From: Escherichia phage ClaudiaMuster_Bas77
Strand: one strand, 5' to 3'
DNA length: 46,037 nt
Sequence record: PQ850598.1
Below, piece by piece: positions 17,507-45,602 of this stretch. The notes beneath the pieces are model-generated. The model saw nothing but the letters and a program-made list of their open reading frames with translations, did not search any database and had not been told where the DNA came from. The translations under genes were made by a program, and so were the position numbers. Positions within the stretch are counted from its first letter, which is position 1. Each line of letters begins with the position of its first letter.

Positions 17507-17676
17507 TTCACCTTAATCATATGCTGTTTTGCAACCTTCAGGCACTCCTCAAAAATGCCACCCTTCTTTGCGCTCTGATTGCGCTTGTAATACTGAACTG
17601 CCGCATCAATTGCCATCTGGTCGATTTCAGGCAGTTTGGTGCGTAGTTGTTTTTCAATGAATTGTTCTGGTGTCAT
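17503..17676 (-). CDS. hypothetical protein (57 aa)
   Basis: Hand-translated: MTPEQFIEKQLRTKLPEIDQMAIDAAVQYYKRNQSAKKGGIFEECLKVAKQHMIKVK; start overlaps the methyltransferase stop (TAATG), stop overlaps the clamp-like gene start. Confidence 0.4.
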   Translation of the reverse strand: MTPEQFIEKQLRTKLPEIDQMAIDAAVQYYKRNQSAKKGGIFEECLKVAKQHMIKVK

Positions 17677-18473
17677 TAAACGGACCTCATGAATGCTTTA
17701 ATGAATTCTGCTGCGACTTGTGGAACTATGGCATTGCCATAACCGCGCAATCGTCCCACTCTTGCGGATACCCCATGAGTTGCCTCGCAAAATCCGCCTG
17801 GTATGACTCTAGTTTCCTTATCTGCTCCATGGTTGGGTTTCCATGAATCCCATAAACATGAAGCCACATCTGGCGATAAAGAGTATCGTTCCTGAATTTT
17901 CCGTCCTTTCTGTAAAATGTCTTGCTGAGATCCCCGTAATCCTTCCATCCTCGCGCCGTTGGTGTCGCCCATCCTCGCGCCAAAGATGATTCTTTTCCTT
18001 TCCTGTGGAGAGCCGACGCTGCAAGCTGGCAATACTGACGCCCCGCAGGCGTAGCCTTTGTCTTCCAGGTTAAGGAATACAAAATCGAGCCAGTGCTTCC
18101 CAATTGCTGCTGCAACCTGCTCTCCAAACAGCAATTCAGGCTTGCACTCTCTGATGAGCCTGAGAAATGCTGGGGCAAGGTGTCGATCGTCGTCAAATCC
18201 GAGAGACTTACCGGCAACGCTAAACGGCTGGCAAGGTGGTGATCCTGTCCAGAGTCGAGTGCTTTCTGGTATTCCTGCCAGCTGGAGTGCAAGGGGCCAC
18301 CCTCCGATTCCGGCAAAGAAGTGACACTGTGTAAATCCTTCCAGGTCTGAAGGGGTGACTTCGGTGATTGATCGTTCATCGACATATCCGTAAGGAATTA
18401 GTTTATTGTTAATTAATTCACGCAGCCATGCCGCTGCGCCCTTGTCCCACTCATTGTAATAGTGGACCATCAT
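17676..18473 (-). CDS. DNA (cytosine-5)-methyltransferase, minimal
   Basis: C5-MTase motifs in canonical order: I FFAGIGG, IV SPPCQPFS, VI-like LFGEQV (ENV variant), VIII QERKR, X GNAIVPQV. Only ~265 aa with a short target-recognition region. Confidence 0.75.
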   Translation of the reverse strand: MMVHYYNEWDKGAAAWLRELINNKLIPYGYVDERSITEVTPSDLEGFTQCHFFAGIGGWPLALQLAGIPESTRLWTGSPPCQPFSVAGKSLGFDDDRHLAPAFLRLIRECKPELLFGEQVAAAIGKHWLDFVFLNLEDKGYACGASVLPACSVGSPQERKRIIFGARMGDTNGARMEGLRGSQQDILQKGRKIQERYSLSPDVASCLWDSWKPNHGADKETRVIPGGFCEATHGVSARVGRLRGYGNAIVPQVAAEFIKAFMRSV

Positions 18474-19282
18474 CACATCTTCTCCAGAATTGCCATCACC
18501 TCGTGAATATCAGCAACAGGAATCTGGATAAACTCCTCATTCTCTGCCACTACATGACCAGCAGGAAGAATAACGTGGTCAGCTGGCTTCAGTAACTCAA
18601 TCAGTCGGTCTACTGGCTTAATCTTTTTCGACTTAAGCACCTTCGCCGTTACCTTATCCTTGCCTTGCGCCTTCGCTTCTTCGACTGCCTCGTCGATAAC
18701 TTTAACCGCATCATCGCCATGTTCGCGAGTTACTGCTACGGCATTTGCATAGCTGATTTGCCCTGCACTGATTCGCGCTTTTACTTCGGCTGGCACATCA
18801 CCCAGTGACAGGTGCATCTGCACGTCAGAAACTGAGCGCCCTACCTTCTTGGCGATTTCCTCGTTGGTCCAGCCAAAACCCTTCAGTCGCGTGTAAGCCT
18901 TTGCGCGTTCAAACGGGTCAAGCTGCTTACCCTGACTGGACGACACCATGAAGGCGATTTTATCTGCTTCGCCTCCTGTGAAATCCTTGCACTCAATACG
19001 AACAATTGGTGCGCCACGCTCAATGGCACGCAACGCTCCGAGATAGCGATGCTGACCATCAAGAATGCGGATTCCCTTCTCGTCTGGAATAACTGTTAAT
19101 GCTGGCAATGGCTGACCTGACTCCCAGCACTGCGCGAAATACTCCACATGCTGCTCATCTGCCTCACGGATGTTGTATCCCGGCTCAAGATAGATTTGCT
19201 CAACTGGAACGAGATATGTTTTGTTAACAGCGATGCCGTTACGCGTTTCTTTGTCTGAATAGATTTTGCTGAGTGTTTTCAT
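18473..19282 (-). CDS. ParB-like nuclease-domain protein (DGQHR motif)
   Basis: Track ORF 18473..19294 (GTG); ATG at 19282. IRILDGQHRYLGALRAIERG carries the DGQHR signature of the DndB/ParB-like family; helix-turn-helix-like segment TNEEIAKKVGRSVSDV. Confidence 0.6.
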   Translation of the reverse strand: MKTLSKIYSDKETRNGIAVNKTYLVPVEQIYLEPGYNIREADEQHVEYFAQCWESGQPLPALTVIPDEKGIRILDGQHRYLGALRAIERGAPIVRIECKDFTGGEADKIAFMVSSSQGKQLDPFERAKAYTRLKGFGWTNEEIAKKVGRSVSDVQMHLSLGDVPAEVKARISAGQISYANAVAVTREHGDDAVKVIDEAVEEAKAQGKDKVTAKVLKSKKIKPVDRLIELLKPADHVILPAGHVVAENEEFIQIPVADIHEVMAILEKM

Positions 19283-19283
19283 A

Positions 19284-19481
19284 TCATTCACCACTTTCTT
19301 CTAACAATTGCTCATAATATGCGACGTATTCATTAGCCAGATGGTACAGGCGATCAGCAGACTTGCGTTCTGCATTGCTTAAGTCATCAATAGACTCAAT
19401 GTTGCCAATTGCATCAACACAATCATTGAAGTCTTGCTCCGTGTTACGGAATCTACAGTAGGACATGTTTGCCATAATCAC
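19284..19481 (-). CDS. hypothetical acidic protein (65 aa)
   Basis: Track ORF. Confidence 0.5.
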   Translation of the reverse strand: MIMANMSYCRFRNTEQDFNDCVDAIGNIESIDDLSNAERKSADRLYHLANEYVAYYEQLLEESGE

Positions 19482-36455: not shown

Positions 36456-37400
36456 TTATAAATTAAACTGTTTTTTGAACCATTCAGGCGTTTCCATTTC
36501 TATGACAGGATTACCCATTGAATAACCGGGCCACGAATTGGCTTTTTTGCACGCCTTGTAAATTTCCATAGCGCCATGCAACTGAATTCGACCGATGCGT
36601 AATTGCTCTTCAGTCAAGCGAATTAACGCAGGAATAAATGGTGCTTTCTTTTCCTGAACGAGAAGATTAACAGAGCGTGGCGCATGACCATATGCCGCAA
36701 CAAACATGTCGTGCTGCATCGCCATTTTCATAAAGTACCCAAGTCTCGCAGCATGACGGAAAAACTCTTCTGGCTTGGCGCTCACCGCTGTTTTGTAGTC
36801 GATGATGTCGCCACCTTTGGTAAGGCAGTCAAAGCGAACTTTTGCCTTCTCTCCGTTAATTTCACCTAGAATTGACACTTCAGCATAAGCACCAGCGAGA
36901 AGACTGCTGTAATAGCTGTTTGCGTGGATTACAGCACGCATTTGCTGAATAGCGTCATAATCACCACCTTCCAGCATTTGCTTTCCTACAGCAGCTTTTT
37001 CAGCCTCTTCACGGATGACATCGTAAATTTTCACTGGCTCGCCAGTCGCCTGGATGATTTTGATCACCTCAGCTTTCGACTTTCCTGAAAGTCCTTTGAT
37101 GCCTCGTTCTTTTGCCCATGAGTTCATATCACTTACAGTAACAAGCAGGTCATCACCAAAATCTTCTTTGGTTGGCATTCGTGCATATTCAGCATCAAAA
37201 CGCTCTGGTTCAAGCAACGCAGTATGGCTACCTGTACCGAATATAAGAGCTTTTGATTGCTCATCCTCTTCGTCTTTGTATCGCCATGCTGCTGGGCATC
37301 TGTCAAGTATATTCCATAATCCAGAGCCATTAATATGCTCTGTGTCTGCGTGGTAATCTTCATTACTGAGTTCATTATTGAAATAGACTTTCATCATCAC
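36456..37400 (-). CDS. PD-(D/E)XK family exonuclease
   Basis: 314 aa; D ... IIDYK core motif (RFDCLTKGGDIIDYKT); position in the recombination module. Confidence 0.55.
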   Translation of the reverse strand: MMMKVYFNNELSNEDYHADTEHINGSGLWNILDRCPAAWRYKDEEDEQSKALIFGTGSHTALLEPERFDAEYARMPTKEDFGDDLLVTVSDMNSWAKERGIKGLSGKSKAEVIKIIQATGEPVKIYDVIREEAEKAAVGKQMLEGGDYDAIQQMRAVIHANSYYSSLLAGAYAEVSILGEINGEKAKVRFDCLTKGGDIIDYKTAVSAKPEEFFRHAARLGYFMKMAMQHDMFVAAYGHAPRSVNLLVQEKKAPFIPALIRLTEEQLRIGRIQLHGAMEIYKACKKANSWPGYSMGNPVIEMETPEWFKKQFNL

Positions 37401-38023
37401 TCTCCGTGGTTACAGAATTCTTTATGCATCTTTTCTCTGAATTTCATCACAGACAACCTCGCTCTCTCAATATCATTGAATAACCCAAGATGGTATCTTT
37501 TCCCGTTAACATCACAGTAAGCCTGCCACTTTTTAACCTGTTTTTGCCAATACACACCTTTAACTCCTGATGTGTTATTTTTTGGTTTTTTAGCGTTATA
37601 CTGGTTCTGCATATTTGTTGCGATTCTTAAGTTGCAAATCCTGTTATCGTCACGCACGCCGTTAATGTGATCAATTTGACCTTCAGGCCAGAAACCATAA
37701 TAAATCAACCATGCCAAGCGATGCGCGTAGTATCTTTTATTATTTATGCTTATCTCTATGTATCCGTTATGTTTTTTCCTGCCAGCGACACTACCCTTTC
37801 TTATACCTCCACCCGTCTTATTTCTAATGAAAACCCCCGTTTCAGGGTTGTAATTTAAGCTATCCAAAACAACATCACGTGGTATTCTTTTTCTTCCTCC
37901 TATGGTGTTTGACTCTGCACTTCCCTGAGCAAAATCTTGCTTTTGCAGTTCCGATAAACTCATTTCCACAAACCTCGCACTTCTTAACGGTGATAGCCAT
38001 TTCTTATCCTCTATTGTAATCAT
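37397..38023 (-). CDS. HNH homing endonuclease with AP2 DNA-binding domain
   Basis: HNH segment YAHRLAWLIYYGFWPEGQIDHINGVRDDNRICNLRIATNMQN; AP2-like segment SGVKGVYWQKQVKKWQAYCDVNGKRYHLGLFNDIERARLSVMKF. Confidence 0.7.
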   Translation of the reverse strand: MITIEDKKWLSPLRSARFVEMSLSELQKQDFAQGSAESNTIGGRKRIPRDVVLDSLNYNPETGVFIRNKTGGGIRKGSVAGRKKHNGYIEISINNKRYYAHRLAWLIYYGFWPEGQIDHINGVRDDNRICNLRIATNMQNQYNAKKPKNNTSGVKGVYWQKQVKKWQAYCDVNGKRYHLGLFNDIERARLSVMKFREKMHKEFCNHGE

Positions 38024-38054
38024 TTACCGTTACATTGCAAGTAACTTTTATTTG

Positions 38055-40433: not shown

Positions 40434-40483
40434 TTGATGTTTCTACGTCAGTTAGCTTATACTCAATCTACACCAACAATCAA
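40434..40483. promoter_or_regulatory. divergent promoter region between helicase and primase-like genes
   Basis: Plus strand: TTGATG-18-TATACT (40434-40463). Minus strand: TTGATT-16-TATAAG (rc of 40456-40483). GTTTCTACGTCA and CAATCTACACCAA motif copies present. Confidence 0.45.
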
Positions 40484-40493
40484 GGGTCAATTT

Positions 40494-41447
40494 ATGAGAT
40501 ATGACTGGAAGGAAATCGAGCCAAAAATGATCGGCAACTGGCAGGCTGCCATCATGTCTATCGTCAATGTGGATAGCAGAGTTTTCAATGGCAAGCACCA
40601 GCCATGCCCTCATTGCATGGGGGTTGACCGGTTCCGTTGGGATAATCACTTCGAAACAAAAGGCGATGGCGGCGCAATCTGCAATCAGTGCGGTTCCGGC
40701 AGCGGCATGAATTGGCTGATGAAACTCTCCGGAATGAGCTTTCCTGAAGCGCTGGAGGCGCTTGGTGGATTCCTGAACATGCACCCGCGCGAAAAGCTGG
40801 AGGCAATCAGGAAGGAGCTACCGAAGATAAATTATAGCGATGACTTCATCACTGAGCAGGAAGTCGCCGCAATAATGGCTAAAACGACTCGTGTCGCGAT
40901 GAATGAGTGGACTTTGATAAATGGTATTGGTTGCGACGTTAACGTCACCAGAGGCAAATCTGGAGAACTTATTGCGGTTGAGATGATGCGAGCTGACACA
41001 ATGAAACTGTGCAACGTGGCATTCATTGGCATGGATGGTGATTCAATCAGAACGTTTTTCCGCGCAGGATACAACAAGGACTCAGCCATCAACGGCAAAC
41101 TCACGCGCGGCGCGATAAGCCCAATCGGAGAAGACAACGGGAAGTTCATTTACCTGGTATCTGATTATGCCGATGCGTGGAAGTGCCATTACTTCACTGG
41201 CGCGCATGTCTGGTGCTGCTGGTCGCCGGAAAACATGTGGGAAGTGGTGCGCTCTGTTAGCAATGAGATGAAGTCACGGTTACGCTGCATAGTTAATTAT
41301 AAATTTGACGAACTTTGCGCTGCGGAAAACGCAGGGATTCCGGTGATGCTTCCTGATGATGCCGACACTATCAGGATGGCAAAGAGAATCAGGAGAAAGA
41401 TTTATGACGCTGGCGAGTTGATAGAAAAAATGTCAGTCAACAGATAA
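40494..41447 (+). CDS. primase-like protein with N-terminal zinc ribbon
   Basis: Track ORF 40431..41447; ATG at 40494 (MRYDWKEIEPK); CPHC ... CNQCGSGSG zinc-binding motif; divergent from helicase; primase assignment is contextual. Confidence 0.45.
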   Translation: MRYDWKEIEPKMIGNWQAAIMSIVNVDSRVFNGKHQPCPHCMGVDRFRWDNHFETKGDGGAICNQCGSGSGMNWLMKLSGMSFPEALEALGGFLNMHPREKLEAIRKELPKINYSDDFITEQEVAAIMAKTTRVAMNEWTLINGIGCDVNVTRGKSGELIAVEMMRADTMKLCNVAFIGMDGDSIRTFFRAGYNKDSAINGKLTRGAISPIGEDNGKFIYLVSDYADAWKCHYFTGAHVWCCWSPENMWEVVRSVSNEMKSRLRCIVNYKFDELCAAENAGIPVMLPDDADTIRMAKRIRRKIYDAGELIEKMSVNR

Positions 41448-41478
41448 AAGAAACCCTCCATATGGAGGGTTTTTTGTT
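41448..41478. terminator. bidirectional rho-independent terminator
   Basis: CCCTCCA ta TGGAGGG hairpin followed by TTTTTT. Confidence 0.65.
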
Positions 41479-41893
41479 ATTTCTTGAACTCTGGTGCTTC
41501 AGTCCAGAAGGCTACATTTCGCAGAGACTTACTCGTGTGATTGCACCAGTATATTCCTGAGTCATCATACTTGGCAGTAACCTTGACGCGATCAGTATCA
41601 ATAATAACAACCTCCTGCCCATCTTTAGGGTCGAAAAGACGCGCATCCTTCCAGTTAGCAATCTCATTAAGGGAAAGAAGAACATAGCCTGGAAGATAAG
41701 CGCCGACATCAGCAATGTGAACTATTGTTCGCTCCGTTCTCTCTCCTGTGTAGTCGCCATTCCACTCATAAAGAATAACCGTGTCTCCAACCTTAAAATC
41801 ACGATCGTTCTTCCTTAGTTCCGCCTTCTTGTGTCCGGTAACAACAGGCCAGAAGTGCTCAGGTAAGATTTTTAGTTCGTGTGTTTTGCTCAT
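41477..41893 (-). CDS. DUF3850 / ASCH-like domain protein
   Basis: 138 aa; N-terminal HELKILPEHFWPVVTGHKKAELRKNDRDFKVGDTVILYEW fits the DUF3850 (ASCH-fold) signature as recalled. Confidence 0.5.
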   Translation of the reverse strand: MSKTHELKILPEHFWPVVTGHKKAELRKNDRDFKVGDTVILYEWNGDYTGERTERTIVHIADVGAYLPGYVLLSLNEIANWKDARLFDPKDGQEVVIIDTDRVKVTAKYDDSGIYWCNHTSKSLRNVAFWTEAPEFKK

Positions 41894-43470
41894 TTCAACC
41901 CCCTCATAAATCTCATGCGCTTAACAGCAGCAGAAAGATAATTTCTAACCGTTGAGTTCATTCGCAGTCCATCCCATGAACCATCGCTGCACATCTTAAT
42001 CGCTCTTGGGTTATCTCTGTCCAGCATTAGTGGTGAATGCTTATTCTCCTCAATCGCAAGAAGAACCTCATAAACAAATTTATCAGGTGTTAGTGTGATG
42101 TTATTAGAGTCAGCAGAATTAATTATCTTTTTAATTCTATCACGACACAGCTTGTTCTTTATAACAGACAAGTAAGGCGTTTTAATGAATGCCTGTGACT
42201 CACAAATTCGCTTAATTTTTTCTACAATGTTCTCCCATTCAGTATTTTCAAGTCCATCAAACTCCTGTTCGCCCTCAAGGAATCTTTGCAGACCAGCGAG
42301 ATGCTCAAGAACCACGATATATCCCCATTCGACATGCTCCATCGTAACTGCTGGCGTCATTCCACGGCGACTTGACAGATCTGCGTAAGCCGCAAGAGTT
42401 GCAAGGTCTACAATCATCAGCCCCATGCGCGGGATAACGTCACCAACAACACCATCGCGATCGCCAAGCTCACTTTCCAGTTTCATAGACAGAGATCTGT
42501 GCAGCTTTTTCACTTCATCATCAGCCCATACAGCGTTAGTTTTCGCGGTAAGAATCCTACCTTTCCACTCATTGATTATTTTTCTTGAAATTGTGCCGCT
42601 AACTTCCACATCCTTCATCGCTGGCATTTCCTCACCAGCAAGATGTCCAAGCTGGAACAGCACTCGCCCCATACCGCCATCTTTCTGCCATGAACGCGCA
42701 GCATCTATTCCCTGCTCTGGAGTGACAGTAATCAGCGGAACAAATTTTGCGTTTTCAATTCCACCGTCTTTTGTTGCAATTTCGTATTCATTCATTGCCG
42801 ACTTGAGCGCGCGACCAACGCTGTGGTCCATCATCGCAAGGCGCTTATAATCTATGACGCCTTTACCATCATCACCACCAGTGAGTGGAACTATCCATCC
42901 CTCAGCGCTTGCTGCCGCCATAATGCGTTTTGGGTTTTGTTCCCAAGTAAGGTTTTCAAGCAACTCCTTTATTATTGGCCTGTTAGGAACCCACACTCCG
43001 CCGTCAGTAAGACCTCTATACCACGCCATAGTGCCGCCAAGATATGCATTACGCGGGTTGTTCCAGTCTTCAAGATGTTGCTTATCATCGTTCACAACGT
43101 AGAGCAAAGACCCACCTCCAGCAATAAGGTCTAACTGCATCTGTTTTGTCGAGGTTGATTTAGATGCGCAAACTCTGGACCCTATTCCCAGCGCGTTGGC
43201 ATATGCCCTGACGAAACTCACCGGCGCACCCTTACCTGCACCAGAGCGAGCTACCAGAAATATGCCGGTATTGCAGATACTACCTGTTGGACCAATCAAA
43301 TATCGGCCAGCCATCGCCTGAGTAAGGCCCAATGCACCAGTTAAACGATACCTCTCACCATCATTACGGCGCTCAAAGTTTTTCGCAATCTCATCCATAA
43401 ACTCACCAAGTGCACCAGGAGCATCCCTATTCATACCCATAGCCATGGACTCAAAATCAATAGCGCCCAT
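41890..43470 (-). CDS. large hypothetical protein with P-loop-like motif
   Basis: Track ORF 41890..43485; ATG at 43470 overlaps upstream stop; ARSGAGKGA glycine-rich loop; no confident family. Confidence 0.45.
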   Translation of the reverse strand: MGAIDFESMAMGMNRDAPGALGEFMDEIAKNFERRNDGERYRLTGALGLTQAMAGRYLIGPTGSICNTGIFLVARSGAGKGAPVSFVRAYANALGIGSRVCASKSTSTKQMQLDLIAGGGSLLYVVNDDKQHLEDWNNPRNAYLGGTMAWYRGLTDGGVWVPNRPIIKELLENLTWEQNPKRIMAAASAEGWIVPLTGGDDGKGVIDYKRLAMMDHSVGRALKSAMNEYEIATKDGGIENAKFVPLITVTPEQGIDAARSWQKDGGMGRVLFQLGHLAGEEMPAMKDVEVSGTISRKIINEWKGRILTAKTNAVWADDEVKKLHRSLSMKLESELGDRDGVVGDVIPRMGLMIVDLATLAAYADLSSRRGMTPAVTMEHVEWGYIVVLEHLAGLQRFLEGEQEFDGLENTEWENIVEKIKRICESQAFIKTPYLSVIKNKLCRDRIKKIINSADSNNITLTPDKFVYEVLLAIEENKHSPLMLDRDNPRAIKMCSDGSWDGLRMNSTVRNYLSAAVKRMRFMRGLK

Positions 43471-43760
43471 CAATATACCCTCCATACTCGCAAGAATTTG
43501 CCAGGGATAATACCTTGTTTCACAGTTACCACCGCACCAGCCCTGTCAGCCTCAATTTTTATCGCCTTCTGAAGTGACGTCATTGTCATCTGAAAACCTC
43601 GCTCTATATCGTATGCGTAGCACCCATCTCTTCCACCAATCAAAATTGAAGTTGAATACCCGTTCTCAAAGTAAAACTGACACCCATCAGGAGCTGTAAG
43701 ATTATTTATCACGTCGTGAGCAAGAGATGTCGTGACAGGGAATATCTGAGCGCAACTCAT
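43470..43760 (-). CDS. hypothetical protein (96 aa)
   Basis: Track ORF 43470..43772; ATG at 43760 with GGAGGTAGGT RBS. Confidence 0.45.
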   Translation of the reverse strand: MSCAQIFPVTTSLAHDVINNLTAPDGCQFYFENGYSTSILIGGRDGCYAYDIERGFQMTMTSLQKAIKIEADRAGAVVTVKQGIIPGKFLRVWRVY

Positions 43761-43762
43761 AC

Positions 43763-44002
43763 CTACCTCCACCCCATGTGTAACAATAAAATTTCGTCTT
43801 TATCAACATTCACCAACACCTTGATACCCATATCCATTGAAACAATACTGACATTTGTTCGAAAACTCGGTAACCCCATCGCGCGCGCACGTTCCCAATC
43901 TTCACCACAAACAAACCACCCATCATGCGTTCTCCTCAGGCGCTTAAGTAACCCGTACACCCACTCAAGATTTGACCCTTTACGGTAATTTAGTTCTTTC
44001 AT
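43763..44002 (-). CDS. hypothetical protein (79 aa)
   Basis: Track ORF 43763..44056; ATG at 44002 with GGAGATGGAGG RBS (MKELNYRKGSNLEW...). Confidence 0.45.
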   Translation of the reverse strand: MKELNYRKGSNLEWVYGLLKRLRRTHDGWFVCGEDWERARAMGLPSFRTNVSIVSMDMGIKVLVNVDKDEILLLHMGWR

Positions 44003-44099
44003 ACTTACCTCCATCTCCAGTGACTCTAATTTTATATAAATAAAAAAGATATGCAATTCTAATATGTGCTGGCTGTACAGTTTGGCTAATTTTTGCTCG

Positions 44100-44510
44100 A
44101 TTTATACCGTCTTTACCTGGTTTTTACCGTGCTATTTTTGATGCAACTAATTGATTAATAAGATTTTACCGGTTTTACCGGATTTCTTAAGTGGTATTTT
44201 AATTATTAAGATTGGCAGTGTATTAATTTGATCTAATTTTAATAAACTTAAATAAAATCAATATATTAATATGAATGAATAACTTACTTACCTCTATAGA
44301 ATTTACCGGGTAAAACCGGTAACTCCTCCGCAAGCCGCGCCATTGCTGGCTTCATTTTTACCACCTGTAGGTAAATACAGTAGTTTTTAAGTGATAATTG
44401 TTTTGGTAAGCTGTTGATTACCGGTGCTTTATTTAAAAAACCGGCATTTACCGGTATTTTGTGGAGTGATTAATAAGTGCGCAATTAGTCCTTGTTTACC
44501 AGAATCAACA
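44100..44510. repeat. iteron array (TTTACCGG core, at least 9 copies) flanking an AT-rich core
   Basis: Copies near 44112, 44122, 44163-44186 (tandem pair), 44301-44328 (palindromic pair), 44354, 44416, 44436-44459 (pair) and 44493; AT-rich stretch 44200-44290; no ORF. Confidence 0.6.
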
Positions 44511-44530
44511 AGTGCGAAACCTAAATAATG

Positions 44531-44559
44531 TTGACGTAGAAACATCATTGATGTAGATT
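44531..44559 (+). promoter_or_regulatory. sigma70-like promoter (TTGACG-17-TAGATT)
   Basis: TTGACG, 17-nt spacer, TAGATT about 30 nt upstream of the 44590 ATG; contains GACGTAGAAAC and GATGTAGATTG motif copies. Confidence 0.55.
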
Positions 44560-44589
44560 GAACTCATCGGAACAAACGAGGGTGAAGAG

Positions 44590-44775
44590 ATGAACAAAGA
44601 AAGCACGTACAGCATCGACCAGATGAAGTTGTTCAGCGATATATGCATGGCATTGTCACAACAGGTTCCAAGTCTACCTGCTGATATGCGCTCAAATGCC
44701 ATCATTGATGCGGCAAACATGATTTGTGAGGCATATGCTATGACTGAAGATGAATATAAGGCATCGAAGAAATGA
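44590..44775 (+). CDS. hypothetical protein (61 aa)
   Basis: Track ORF with GAGGGTGAAGAG RBS. Confidence 0.5.
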   Translation: MNKESTYSIDQMKLFSDICMALSQQVPSLPADMRSNAIIDAANMICEAYAMTEDEYKASKK

Positions 44776-44867
44776 CAGGCGCAGCATTCGAGCTTATCTC
44801 CAGTCTGGTTATCGTGGCATTCATCATTATCGCAGTGGCGGTTTCTAAATCAGGGTATAAGGAGTAA
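44772..44867 (+). CDS. small membrane peptide (31 aa)
   Basis: Hand-translated: MTGAAFELISSLVIVAFIIIAVAVSKSGYKE; ATGA overlap with upstream stop. Confidence 0.35.
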   Translation: MTGAAFELISSLVIVAFIIIAVAVSKSGYKE

Positions 44868-44870
44868 CAA

Positions 44871-45053
44871 ATGGCAAAGACTATCTATCGTCGCGAGAAA
44901 CTGGAGCCTGAACTCGGTCACGTTGGCGCGCAAAACTTTATGAGCAAGCAGGCACGCAATGCAATGGAATCTATACGCGTGAATCGCGTTGTGCGCGTGT
45001 TTAACGGTGAAGGTAAGCGAAGAGTAATGGATGAACTGATTATCGTATTTTGA
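44871..45053 (+). CDS. hypothetical protein (60 aa)
   Basis: Track ORF with strong AAGGAG RBS. Confidence 0.55.
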   Translation: MAKTIYRREKLEPELGHVGAQNFMSKQARNAMESIRVNRVVRVFNGEGKRRVMDELIIVF

Positions 45054-45089
45054 CATCGATTCAGCAGGCTTATTTCTAATGGTGATGAT

Positions 45090-45317
45090 ATGGAAAAAGT
45101 AAAAACATACGAGTTCTGGTTTGTGCAGAACAAAATGTATGCAAGCAGGACAATCAAGAGAGTCAGCTGGTGGAATAAGTGGTTAATCCTCTCCGGCTGC
45201 ATCGTGCTGGCAAAGTGCAAATTCAAAGCGATTGACATCACTGATGAAAACGCACTCAAAATCGCAAAGATTGTGTTTGAAGAGGATGGCTATTACGAAG
45301 AAATTATGGGGGGTTAG
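45090..45317 (+). CDS. hypothetical protein (75 aa)
   Basis: Track ORF. Confidence 0.5.
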   Translation: MEKVKTYEFWFVQNKMYASRTIKRVSWWNKWLILSGCIVLAKCKFKAIDITDENALKIAKIVFEEDGYYEEIMGG

Positions 45318-45320
45318 GGT

Positions 45321-45602
45321 ATGAGTGAAGTTAAAACGTATGCAGTAAACTGCAACGACGCGTGGCTTAATACAGATGGTGATGACATCTCTGGCTCATA
45401 TGTTAAGTATGCTGATTACGCAGCTCTTCAAGCTAAATGCGATGAGCTACTTAAAGAAATTAAAAACATGCAGGACCAAGCCCTTGATGATGGATGCCGA
45501 ATTACAGAGCTTGAAGAAGCCTTGCAAGATAAGCAGGCACTAATTCCTGATGAGCACGACACCACCGCTCTGCAATTCGAAAGCCTGGCTAAAAGTGAAT
45601 AG
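45321..45602 (+). CDS. hypothetical acidic coiled-coil protein (93 aa)
   Basis: Track ORF with GGGGGTTAGGGT RBS. Confidence 0.5.
   Translation: MSEVKTYAVNCNDAWLNTDGDDISGSYVKYADYAALQAKCDELLKEIKNMQDQALDDGCRITELEEALQDKQALIPDEHDTTALQFESLAKSE

Follow-up and report, generated by a model that had tools for sequence, protein, structure and literature searches.

What is encoded by four close-packed genes that lead away from a repeat-bearing region in Escherichia phage ClaudiaMuster_Bas77, and do these genes belong together? The region under study covers positions 41477-44002 of sequence record PQ850598.1, the whole 46,037-nt stretch of which was analysed (referred to as the window), and holds minus-strand genes for proteins of 79, 96, 526 and 138 amino acids (aa), transcribed away from an iteron and AT-rich region. 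An earlier interpretation of the DNA letters (referred to as the sequence-only reading) had proposed that these genes could encode the replication initiator or a nucleic-acid-targeting system. Our analysis makes it likely that this phage has a replicative helicase of its own, encoded by the 526-aa gene and belonging, as a very divergent MCM-like AAA+ protein, to the superfamily 6 (SF6), DUF3987 type, and that this gene forms an origin-plus-helicase cassette together with its 96-aa partner and the iterons. The features concerned are the following.

43763-44002, minus strand: 79-aa ORFan, the operon's first gene, with a GGAGG ribosome-binding site
43470-43760, minus strand: 96-aa partner protein, its stop codon overlapping the start of the 526-aa gene
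41890-43470, minus strand: 526-aa MCM-like (DUF3987-related) AAA+ protein, predicted replicative helicase from fold and profile evidence
41477-41893, minus strand: 138-aa protein with an N-terminal DUF3850/ASCH (PUA-like) domain, from Pfam, PDB and phrog_986 matches
41448-41475, both strands: bidirectional terminator-like hairpin with a 12-bp stem and T runs on both strands
40461-41447, plus strand: zinc-ribbon DNA primase of the primase-helicase type, convergent with the operon, from Pfam and PHROG matches
44108-44500, no strand: origin-like region, with iteron arrays flanking an A+T block

The four open reading frames (ORFs) were coupled as the sequence-only reading had described, with a 2-nt gap at the 79/96 junction (where a GGAGG lies within the 3′ end of the upstream gene), a 1-nt overlap at the 96/526 junction (TGATG) and a 4-nt overlap at the 526/138 junction (ATGA), with a ribosome-binding site of the GGAGG or GGGGG type ahead of each. 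If the ATG at 43485 were used instead, the 526-aa protein would be 531 aa long; a GGAGG is located 8 nt ahead of the ATG at 43470. The hairpin ends the operon and is common to the operon and the convergent primase gene. The four gene sizes equal those in the GenBank annotation of the near-identical region of Escherichia phage ChristineMuster_Bas80 (referred to as Bas80), which names three hypothetical proteins followed by an 'RNA-binding protein'.

A predicted replicative helicase

The AlphaFold2 model that was first made of the 526-aa protein from 7 sequences was unusable, with a predicted local distance difference test (pLDDT) score of 46. After addition of 6 more distant homologues (yielding 13 sequences, down to 22% identity), a second model reached a pLDDT of 88 and a predicted template modelling (pTM) score of 0.74. 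A Foldseek search with this model, which the sequence-only reading had suggested as a check, revealed full-length matches in BFVD. These were to an LPSTLL protein named 'Replicative DNA helicase [Salmonella phage LPSTLL]' (E 4e-19, template modelling scores of 0.76/0.81), to primase and primase-polymerase fusions in their C-terminal parts (those of Serratia Eta, Pantoea LIET2 and Brucella Pr), and to many DUF3987 proteins (E 1e-6 to 1e-10). Agreement with the PDB was weak, and the closest solved structures to the modelled AAA+ core were MCMs. While the sequence-only reading had recognised no helicase, primase or polymerase family in this protein, fold and profile evidence now places it with the MCM-like/DUF3987 helicases.

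In terms of sequence families, the 526-aa protein yielded nothing in Pfam, NCBIfam or PADLOC, only noise (E>=0.15) in a sequence-profile search of the PDB, and nothing significant by BLASTP against DS8 gp30, a DUF3987 helicase of Shigella phage DS8 (local identity about 20% or less). In PHROGs, however, all 7 close family members matched phrog_3022 'DNA primase' (best E 7e-16), which represents primase-helicase fusions and was covered in its C-terminal half, at positions 356-712 of 788. A word-indexed search of 5.8 billion clusters returned 6 relatives of the 526-aa protein, even with a profile, whereas an exhaustive hidden Markov model (HMM) search of 1.84 billion representatives returned 48 at E<=1e-3. 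Ten of the distant HMM matches were scanned for domains, and four of them carried Pfam DUF3987, either above the cut-off (P0022 and P0024) or just below it (P0021 and P0039). P0022 and P0024 are bridge sequences in that they match both the 526-aa family profile and PF13148 above the cut-off. Primase domains were likewise found among these relatives, P0039 having a strong N-terminal Prim-Pol domain and P0031 an NrS-1-type HBD domain next to a sub-threshold Prim-Pol match. Finally, when the family profile was expanded with the distant relatives, hhalign aligned it collinearly to DS8-type DUF3987 proteins in the lid region (probability 87%, E 4e-6). The link between the 526-aa family and DS8-type DUF3987 proteins was thus seen only after this expansion, and by profile and fold the 526-aa protein is remotely homologous to bona fide DUF3987 members.

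The conserved residues of the 526-aa protein point in the same direction. G77, G79, K80, D128, R269 and R348 were invariant throughout the 13 sequences, which fits an AAA+ ATPase. The glycine-rich SGAGKG loop noticed by the sequence-only reading was indeed located at residues 76-81, where it constitutes the Walker A motif (S76-G-A-G-K80-G, window 43230-43247), and motifs beyond Walker A were assigned from predicted secondary structure. These comprise a candidate Walker B (N127-D128-D129, with the pattern hhhh-[N/D]127-D128 closing the predicted strand 121-127), a candidate sensor 1 (T248/T250) on the core strand after Walker B, a candidate arginine finger (G268-R269) that is invariant and lies directly before the predicted strand 270-274, and a lid (~296-400) that contains the invariant R348. 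The C-terminal domain (~408-526) was modelled as three helices followed by two strands, a pattern that would suit a winged helix. That K80, D128 and R269 are strictly conserved in the family argues for an active site.

A number of results weigh against this assignment. The Pfam DUF3987 model (PF13148) did not match any of the 7 family members at thresholds up to E<=10; HMM searches run directly from the 526-aa family to the DS8-type DUF3987 set and back yielded no matches; and when the close family was compared by hhalign with an alignment of 30 DS8-type DUF3987 sequences, the probability was weak (6.9%). Residue 81 of Walker A is Ser in only 2 of the 13 members and G, Q or N in the remaining 11, and DS8-type DUF3987 helicases retain GK[ST] at this motif. 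Moreover, the 526-aa protein is devoid of the N-terminal OB-fold (oligonucleotide/oligosaccharide-binding)/zinc-finger domain of the MCM type. The protein might instead be an AAA+ origin-binding initiator or loader, or a MoxR/RavA-like ATPase, that does not unwind DNA itself and leaves this task to host DnaB. We regard this explanation as unlikely.

The gene content of the window is also of relevance to the helicase assignment. In DS8, the slot of the 526-aa gene is occupied by a 517-aa protein that Pfam recognises as DUF3987 'DNA helicase' (E 1e-34). Other replication and recombination genes in the window encode the zinc-ribbon primase, a superfamily 2 (SF2) ResIII/Helicase_C helicase, a Sak4-like AAA_24 protein and a PDDEXK exonuclease, to which the Bas80 annotation adds a single-stranded DNA-binding protein. 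The window's large ORFs yielded neither a DnaB-type helicase nor another one of hexameric type, and the 526-aa protein is therefore the only candidate replicative ring helicase. A DNA polymerase was neither found among the window ORFs nor annotated in Bas80. The primase matched Pfam Zn_Ribbon_Prim (E 4.7e-10, only the zinc ribbon being recognised) and the N-terminal half only (8-348 of 667) of phrog_510 'DNA primase' (E 1.2e-79), and had no sequence match in the PDB. Primase and 526-aa protein, encoded on opposite strands and one gene apart, amount to a split primase-helicase. This association with a primase, as a neighbour here and as fusions in distant homologues, is as expected of DUF3987 proteins.

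Preferring the helicase assignment, we consider that the 526-aa family would constitute an uncatalogued subfamily of DUF3987-related helicases, outside formal PF13148 membership because the Pfam model does not detect it. Pfam and NCBIfam models would then be missing a whole branch of MCM-like phage helicases, and a function can be proposed for a 'hypothetical' protein of Bas80, ZCEC08, ASO78B, Bas81, swi2, BUCT541 and related phages.

Iterons and their exchange with the helicase gene

The region upstream of the operon was enriched in short repeats. GGTA[AT] occurred 16 times in 44108-44500, corresponding to 41 per kb versus 4.5 per kb window-wide, while CCGGTAAA (<=1 mismatch) occurred 46 times in the window versus 22.4 +/- 4.4 expected, with 11 of these occurrences within 44112-44502. 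The gene-proximal array (44108-44179) consists of five GGTA[AT]A iterons that all point toward the operon, and is followed by a block of 90% A+T (about 44200-44290) and by a distal array (44292-44500) that is of mixed orientation in the window. The distal array also harbours a perfect palindrome, ACCGGTAAATGCCGGT at 44440-44455, which is composed of two opposed iteron cores and is terminator-like on both strands. In addition, a 14-nt perfect inverted repeat (TTACCGGTTTTACC at 44166-44179 and GGTAAAACCGGTAA at 44309-44322) spans the A+T block.

Nine family loci from several phage backgrounds were compared for this layout. In each of them, a repeat-free 60-nt block of 78-90% A+T separates two iteron arrays, the proximal one of which holds 3-7 repeats that all, or nearly all, point toward the helicase gene. 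Six loci have a distal array that is purely inverted, and three (the window, ZCEC08 and the swi2/L004 clade) have one of mixed orientation. A GGTAA-like core is present in seven of the nine. Distant members reside in other backbones, namely KLB16 (34% identity), L014/P0009 (40%), L013/P0014 (28%) and L011/P0015 (22%), and in all four of these the helicase gene follows an intergenic region of 400-590 bp. In unrelated backbones, two opposed repeat arrays around an A+T block preceded the helicase gene every time, and these regions were located as follows.

4215-4784 of L014: repeat-bearing intergenic region
292-795 of L013: repeat-bearing intergenic region
5118-5707 of L011: repeat-bearing intergenic region
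2936-3336 of L008: repeat-bearing intergenic region

The repeats of L014 are of two interleaved types, CAGGTAAA and CCGGATCA. As the linkage between helicase and iterons was conserved across these loci, the absence of conservation with the iteron region, which the sequence-only reading had named as grounds for abandoning its proposal, was not found.

Comparison with close relatives of the phage revealed how this region is exchanged. The window is a mosaic relative of Bas80 (PQ850597), a BASEL siphovirus of roughly 47 kb, with segments that are 81-99.7% identical and several unaligned gaps in between. Within this mosaic, 41400-44100 is 99.9% identical to Bas80, and the primase-helicase-origin block as a whole (40491-45431) is 99% identical. 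A literature search for Bas80 returned nothing relevant, and the main text of the BASEL completion paper does not name this phage. DS8, on the other hand, shares 92% DNA identity with the window across the genes for the primase and the DUF3850 protein until 41909, where homology ends, to restart only at 44526, both flanks being 92-94% identical. This homology gap (41909-44526) indicates that the helicase, 96-aa and 79-aa genes and the repeats have been replaced as one 2.6-kb block. The corresponding DS8 block has its DUF3987 helicase gene preceded by a gene for a 90-aa AP2-like DNA-binding protein, and its repeats are of a different sequence.

The iteron sequence in fact changes along with the helicase type, the repeats being CGTGGGGCA in DS8, CCGGTAAA in the window, MMGGTAAA in ZCEC08, CCGGTAAC(TC) in swi2, L004 and L005 (9-11 copies), and GGGAAC(TC) in BUCT541. 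Iteron-type origins are recognised by repeats that are clustered above chance beside an A+T block and that co-vary with the initiator gene, and at the sequence level both features were found here. From this synteny among related phages, a comparison that the sequence-only reading had called for, we infer that helicase and origin appear to travel as one swappable block. The locus thereby documents a clean natural exchange of origin and helicase between near-identical phage backbones, which is useful for annotating and engineering small siphoviruses of the BASEL type.

The position of the repeats could also be read differently, and to that extent it counts against an origin. They lie in a divergent promoter region, with promoter-like hexamers between the divergent operons upstream of the 79-aa gene, and could be the operators of a regulator for divergent early promoters rather than an origin. 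The plus-strand neighbours, however, are 92-94% identical in DS8 despite entirely different repeats there, and ZCEC08 keeps its GGTAAA repeats without having the 79-aa gene. Moreover, the arrays flank a repeat-free block of 78-90% A+T, a layout that is typical of origins. We attach little probability to the operator explanation and retain the region as a putative origin, noting that operator and origin roles of the repeats are not mutually exclusive.

Partner gene, passengers and neighbours

Which protein would read the iterons? The binder must be encoded in the swapped block, because the plus-strand neighbours are common to DS8, which has other repeats, and the 79-aa gene is absent in ZCEC08. 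This leaves the helicase and its 96-aa partner as candidates; iteron binding by the 79-aa protein or by the plus-strand neighbours was rejected on these grounds of distribution.

Searches of Pfam and the PDB returned no match for the 96-aa protein. In eight of the nine family loci, the helicase gene is directly adjoined by a small gene, the products of which align weakly across the family, with a common C-terminal motif (KTK..F..VWRV). The 96-aa partner, and not the helicase, might read the iterons and recruit or load the helicase, in the manner of lambda O or DnaA-type initiators. Its position beside the helicase gene in these eight loci would suit such a role, as would its much faster divergence (24-28% identity versus 52% for the helicase, between the window and the swi2 type), which is expected of a specificity factor, and the AP2-like DNA-binding protein that fills the equivalent slot in DS8. 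KLB16, however, keeps iterons although the 400 bp upstream contain no small ORF, which favours the helicase itself. Furthermore, the GGTAA core is kept where the small proteins can barely be aligned, and no DNA-binding fold could be assigned to the 96-aa protein by Pfam or PDB search. On balance, these sequence comparisons give the helicase itself a somewhat better than even chance of being the iteron reader, and make the partner a possible but less probable one. The 96-aa protein would probably act as a loader or specificity subunit.

The other two genes of the operon behaved differently. The 79-aa gene had a tblastn match only in Bas80 among 50,697 phage records, its product matched nothing in Pfam, PHROG, NCBIfam or PADLOC, and in ZCEC08 its slot is taken by a different 76-aa gene that was unmatched by tblastn. 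The 138-aa protein carries the DUF3850/ASCH domain that the sequence-only reading had recognised, with Pfam matches to PF12961 (DUF3850; 70.9 bits, cut-off 22.9, E 1e-19, residues 4-74) and PF04266 (ASCH; 25.8 bits, cut-off 21.2, E 1.8e-5), a match to PDB 3iuw (E 3.5e-10) and one to phrog_986 'RNA-binding protein'. ASCH/DUF3850 PUA-like proteins match its N-terminal 75 residues, and it is set apart from them by an extra C-terminal half of ~60 residues. Searches with this half (41477-41680) yielded chance-level matches only (PPV_E2_N, E 0.05; Fc-epsilon receptor, E about 0.2). The 138-aa protein is probably a nucleic-acid-binding accessory protein.

The suggestion that the four genes act as a single system, directed at nucleic acids or against host defence, with the P-loop protein as effector and modified nucleic acid being sensed by the ASCH-like protein, finds some footing in the tight packing of the genes into one operon and in the link of the PUA-like/ASCH fold to nucleic-acid recognition. 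The DUF3850 gene, however, lies outside the swapped block and accompanies a different type of helicase in DS8, while in swi2, L005 and BUCT541 its place beside 526-aa family helicases is taken by other small genes. Its ATGA coupling to the helicase gene is specific to the window lineage, the corresponding gap in DS8 being 82 bp. Since the DUF3850 and 79-aa genes (the latter found only in Bas80) do not co-occur with the helicase, and since PADLOC returned no match for any of the four proteins at E<=0.1, this part of the sequence-only reading did not hold, and we consider such a system very improbable. Judged by their distribution, the DUF3850 and 79-aa genes are independently varying, co-transcribed passengers that stand outside any system with the helicase.

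Two further loci of the window were noted. Between the exonuclease and SF2 helicase genes, an ORF resembling homing endonucleases (HNH_3 and AP2 domains) is located at 37397-38023 on the minus strand. Bas80 aligns with the window until 37394 and does not match most of this ORF, and the window in turn is devoid of Bas80_0074, which is located between the SF2 helicase and primase genes; the 5′ end of the window ORF (37915-38045) is nevertheless 91% identical to that of Bas80_0074. An HNH gene is found at the Bas80_0074 position in DS8, swi2 and L005 as well. From these sequences, it looks like homing endonuclease genes occupy different intergenic sites of the replication module. The second locus, at 17676-19294 on the minus strand, is an ORF with a C-5 cytosine DNA methylase match (Pfam E 1e-21, partial profile coverage), located directly downstream of a ParB-HTH/KorB-like ORF. 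For this pair, the Bas80 annotation gives a DNA methyltransferase and, for the second ORF, a ParB-like partition protein.

Proposed mechanism and known systems

In the mechanism that we propose, the iterons with their GGTAA core would be recognised by the helicase by way of its C-terminal winged-helix-like domain, its 96-aa partner or both. Alone or with this partner, it would then assemble rings on the arrays at either side of the A+T block and melt the block, after which the helicase would unwind the DNA, the phage primase would prime and the host polymerase would extend. With regard to the replication initiator proposed by the sequence-only reading, that guess was broadly right in so far as a replication protein is predicted beside an origin-like region, and the protein may well be an initiator too. 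The cassette would possibly be self-loading. A more far-reaching version, which we put forward tentatively and consider rather doubtful, is that of a self-loading, origin-recognising MCM-like helicase with a P-loop that lacks Ser/Thr, assembled in opposed orientation on two arrays around an A+T-rich block and carried in a portable two-gene replicon cassette across unrelated phage backbones. If true, this would be a phage counterpart of simian virus 40 (SV40) large T, E1 or MCM double-hexamer loading. The cassette could serve as a compact model of how MCM-like helicases recognise origins in bacteria.

The nearest comparison is with the DUF3987 helicases, such as DS8 gp30 and AgaPH. Like these, the 526-aa protein combines an MCM-like AAA+ core with a lid and a C-terminal winged-helix-like domain, is about 500 aa long, occupies a slot beside a primase and an origin-like region, and has distant relatives that are fused to Prim-Pol or TOPRIM primases. 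Unlike DS8 gp30, it has only 48 residues between Walker A and Walker B (versus 98) and a large insertion between Walker B and sensor 1, and its family has a small partner family of its own, whereas the DS8 type has the AP2-like protein instead. Identity to archaeal and eukaryotic MCMs (PDB 3f8t, MCM2-7) was 8-15%. MCM helicases move 3′ to 5′. This polarity was not assumed for the 526-aa protein, because AgaPH, the one DUF3987 helicase that has been characterised and whose activity requires Walker A and B, has been reported to unwind 5′ to 3′ (PMC11724360). DUF3987 proteins have earlier been proposed as SF6 replicative helicases with a winged helix-turn-helix at the C terminus, often located beside primases (Kazlauskas et al. 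2016, PMC4889955).

The replication logic of the cassette is not new, as modules in which initiator and origin are exchanged together have already been described, and so has the pairing of DUF3987 helicases with primases. The 526-aa gene and its iterons resemble the modules that join an initiator-helicase to an iteron origin, such as those of P4 alpha and of the Staphylococcus aureus pathogenicity island (SaPI) Rep-ori. The initiator-helicases of that comparison are of the superfamily 3 (SF3) or DUF927 type, and in the window phage the primase is a separate polypeptide.

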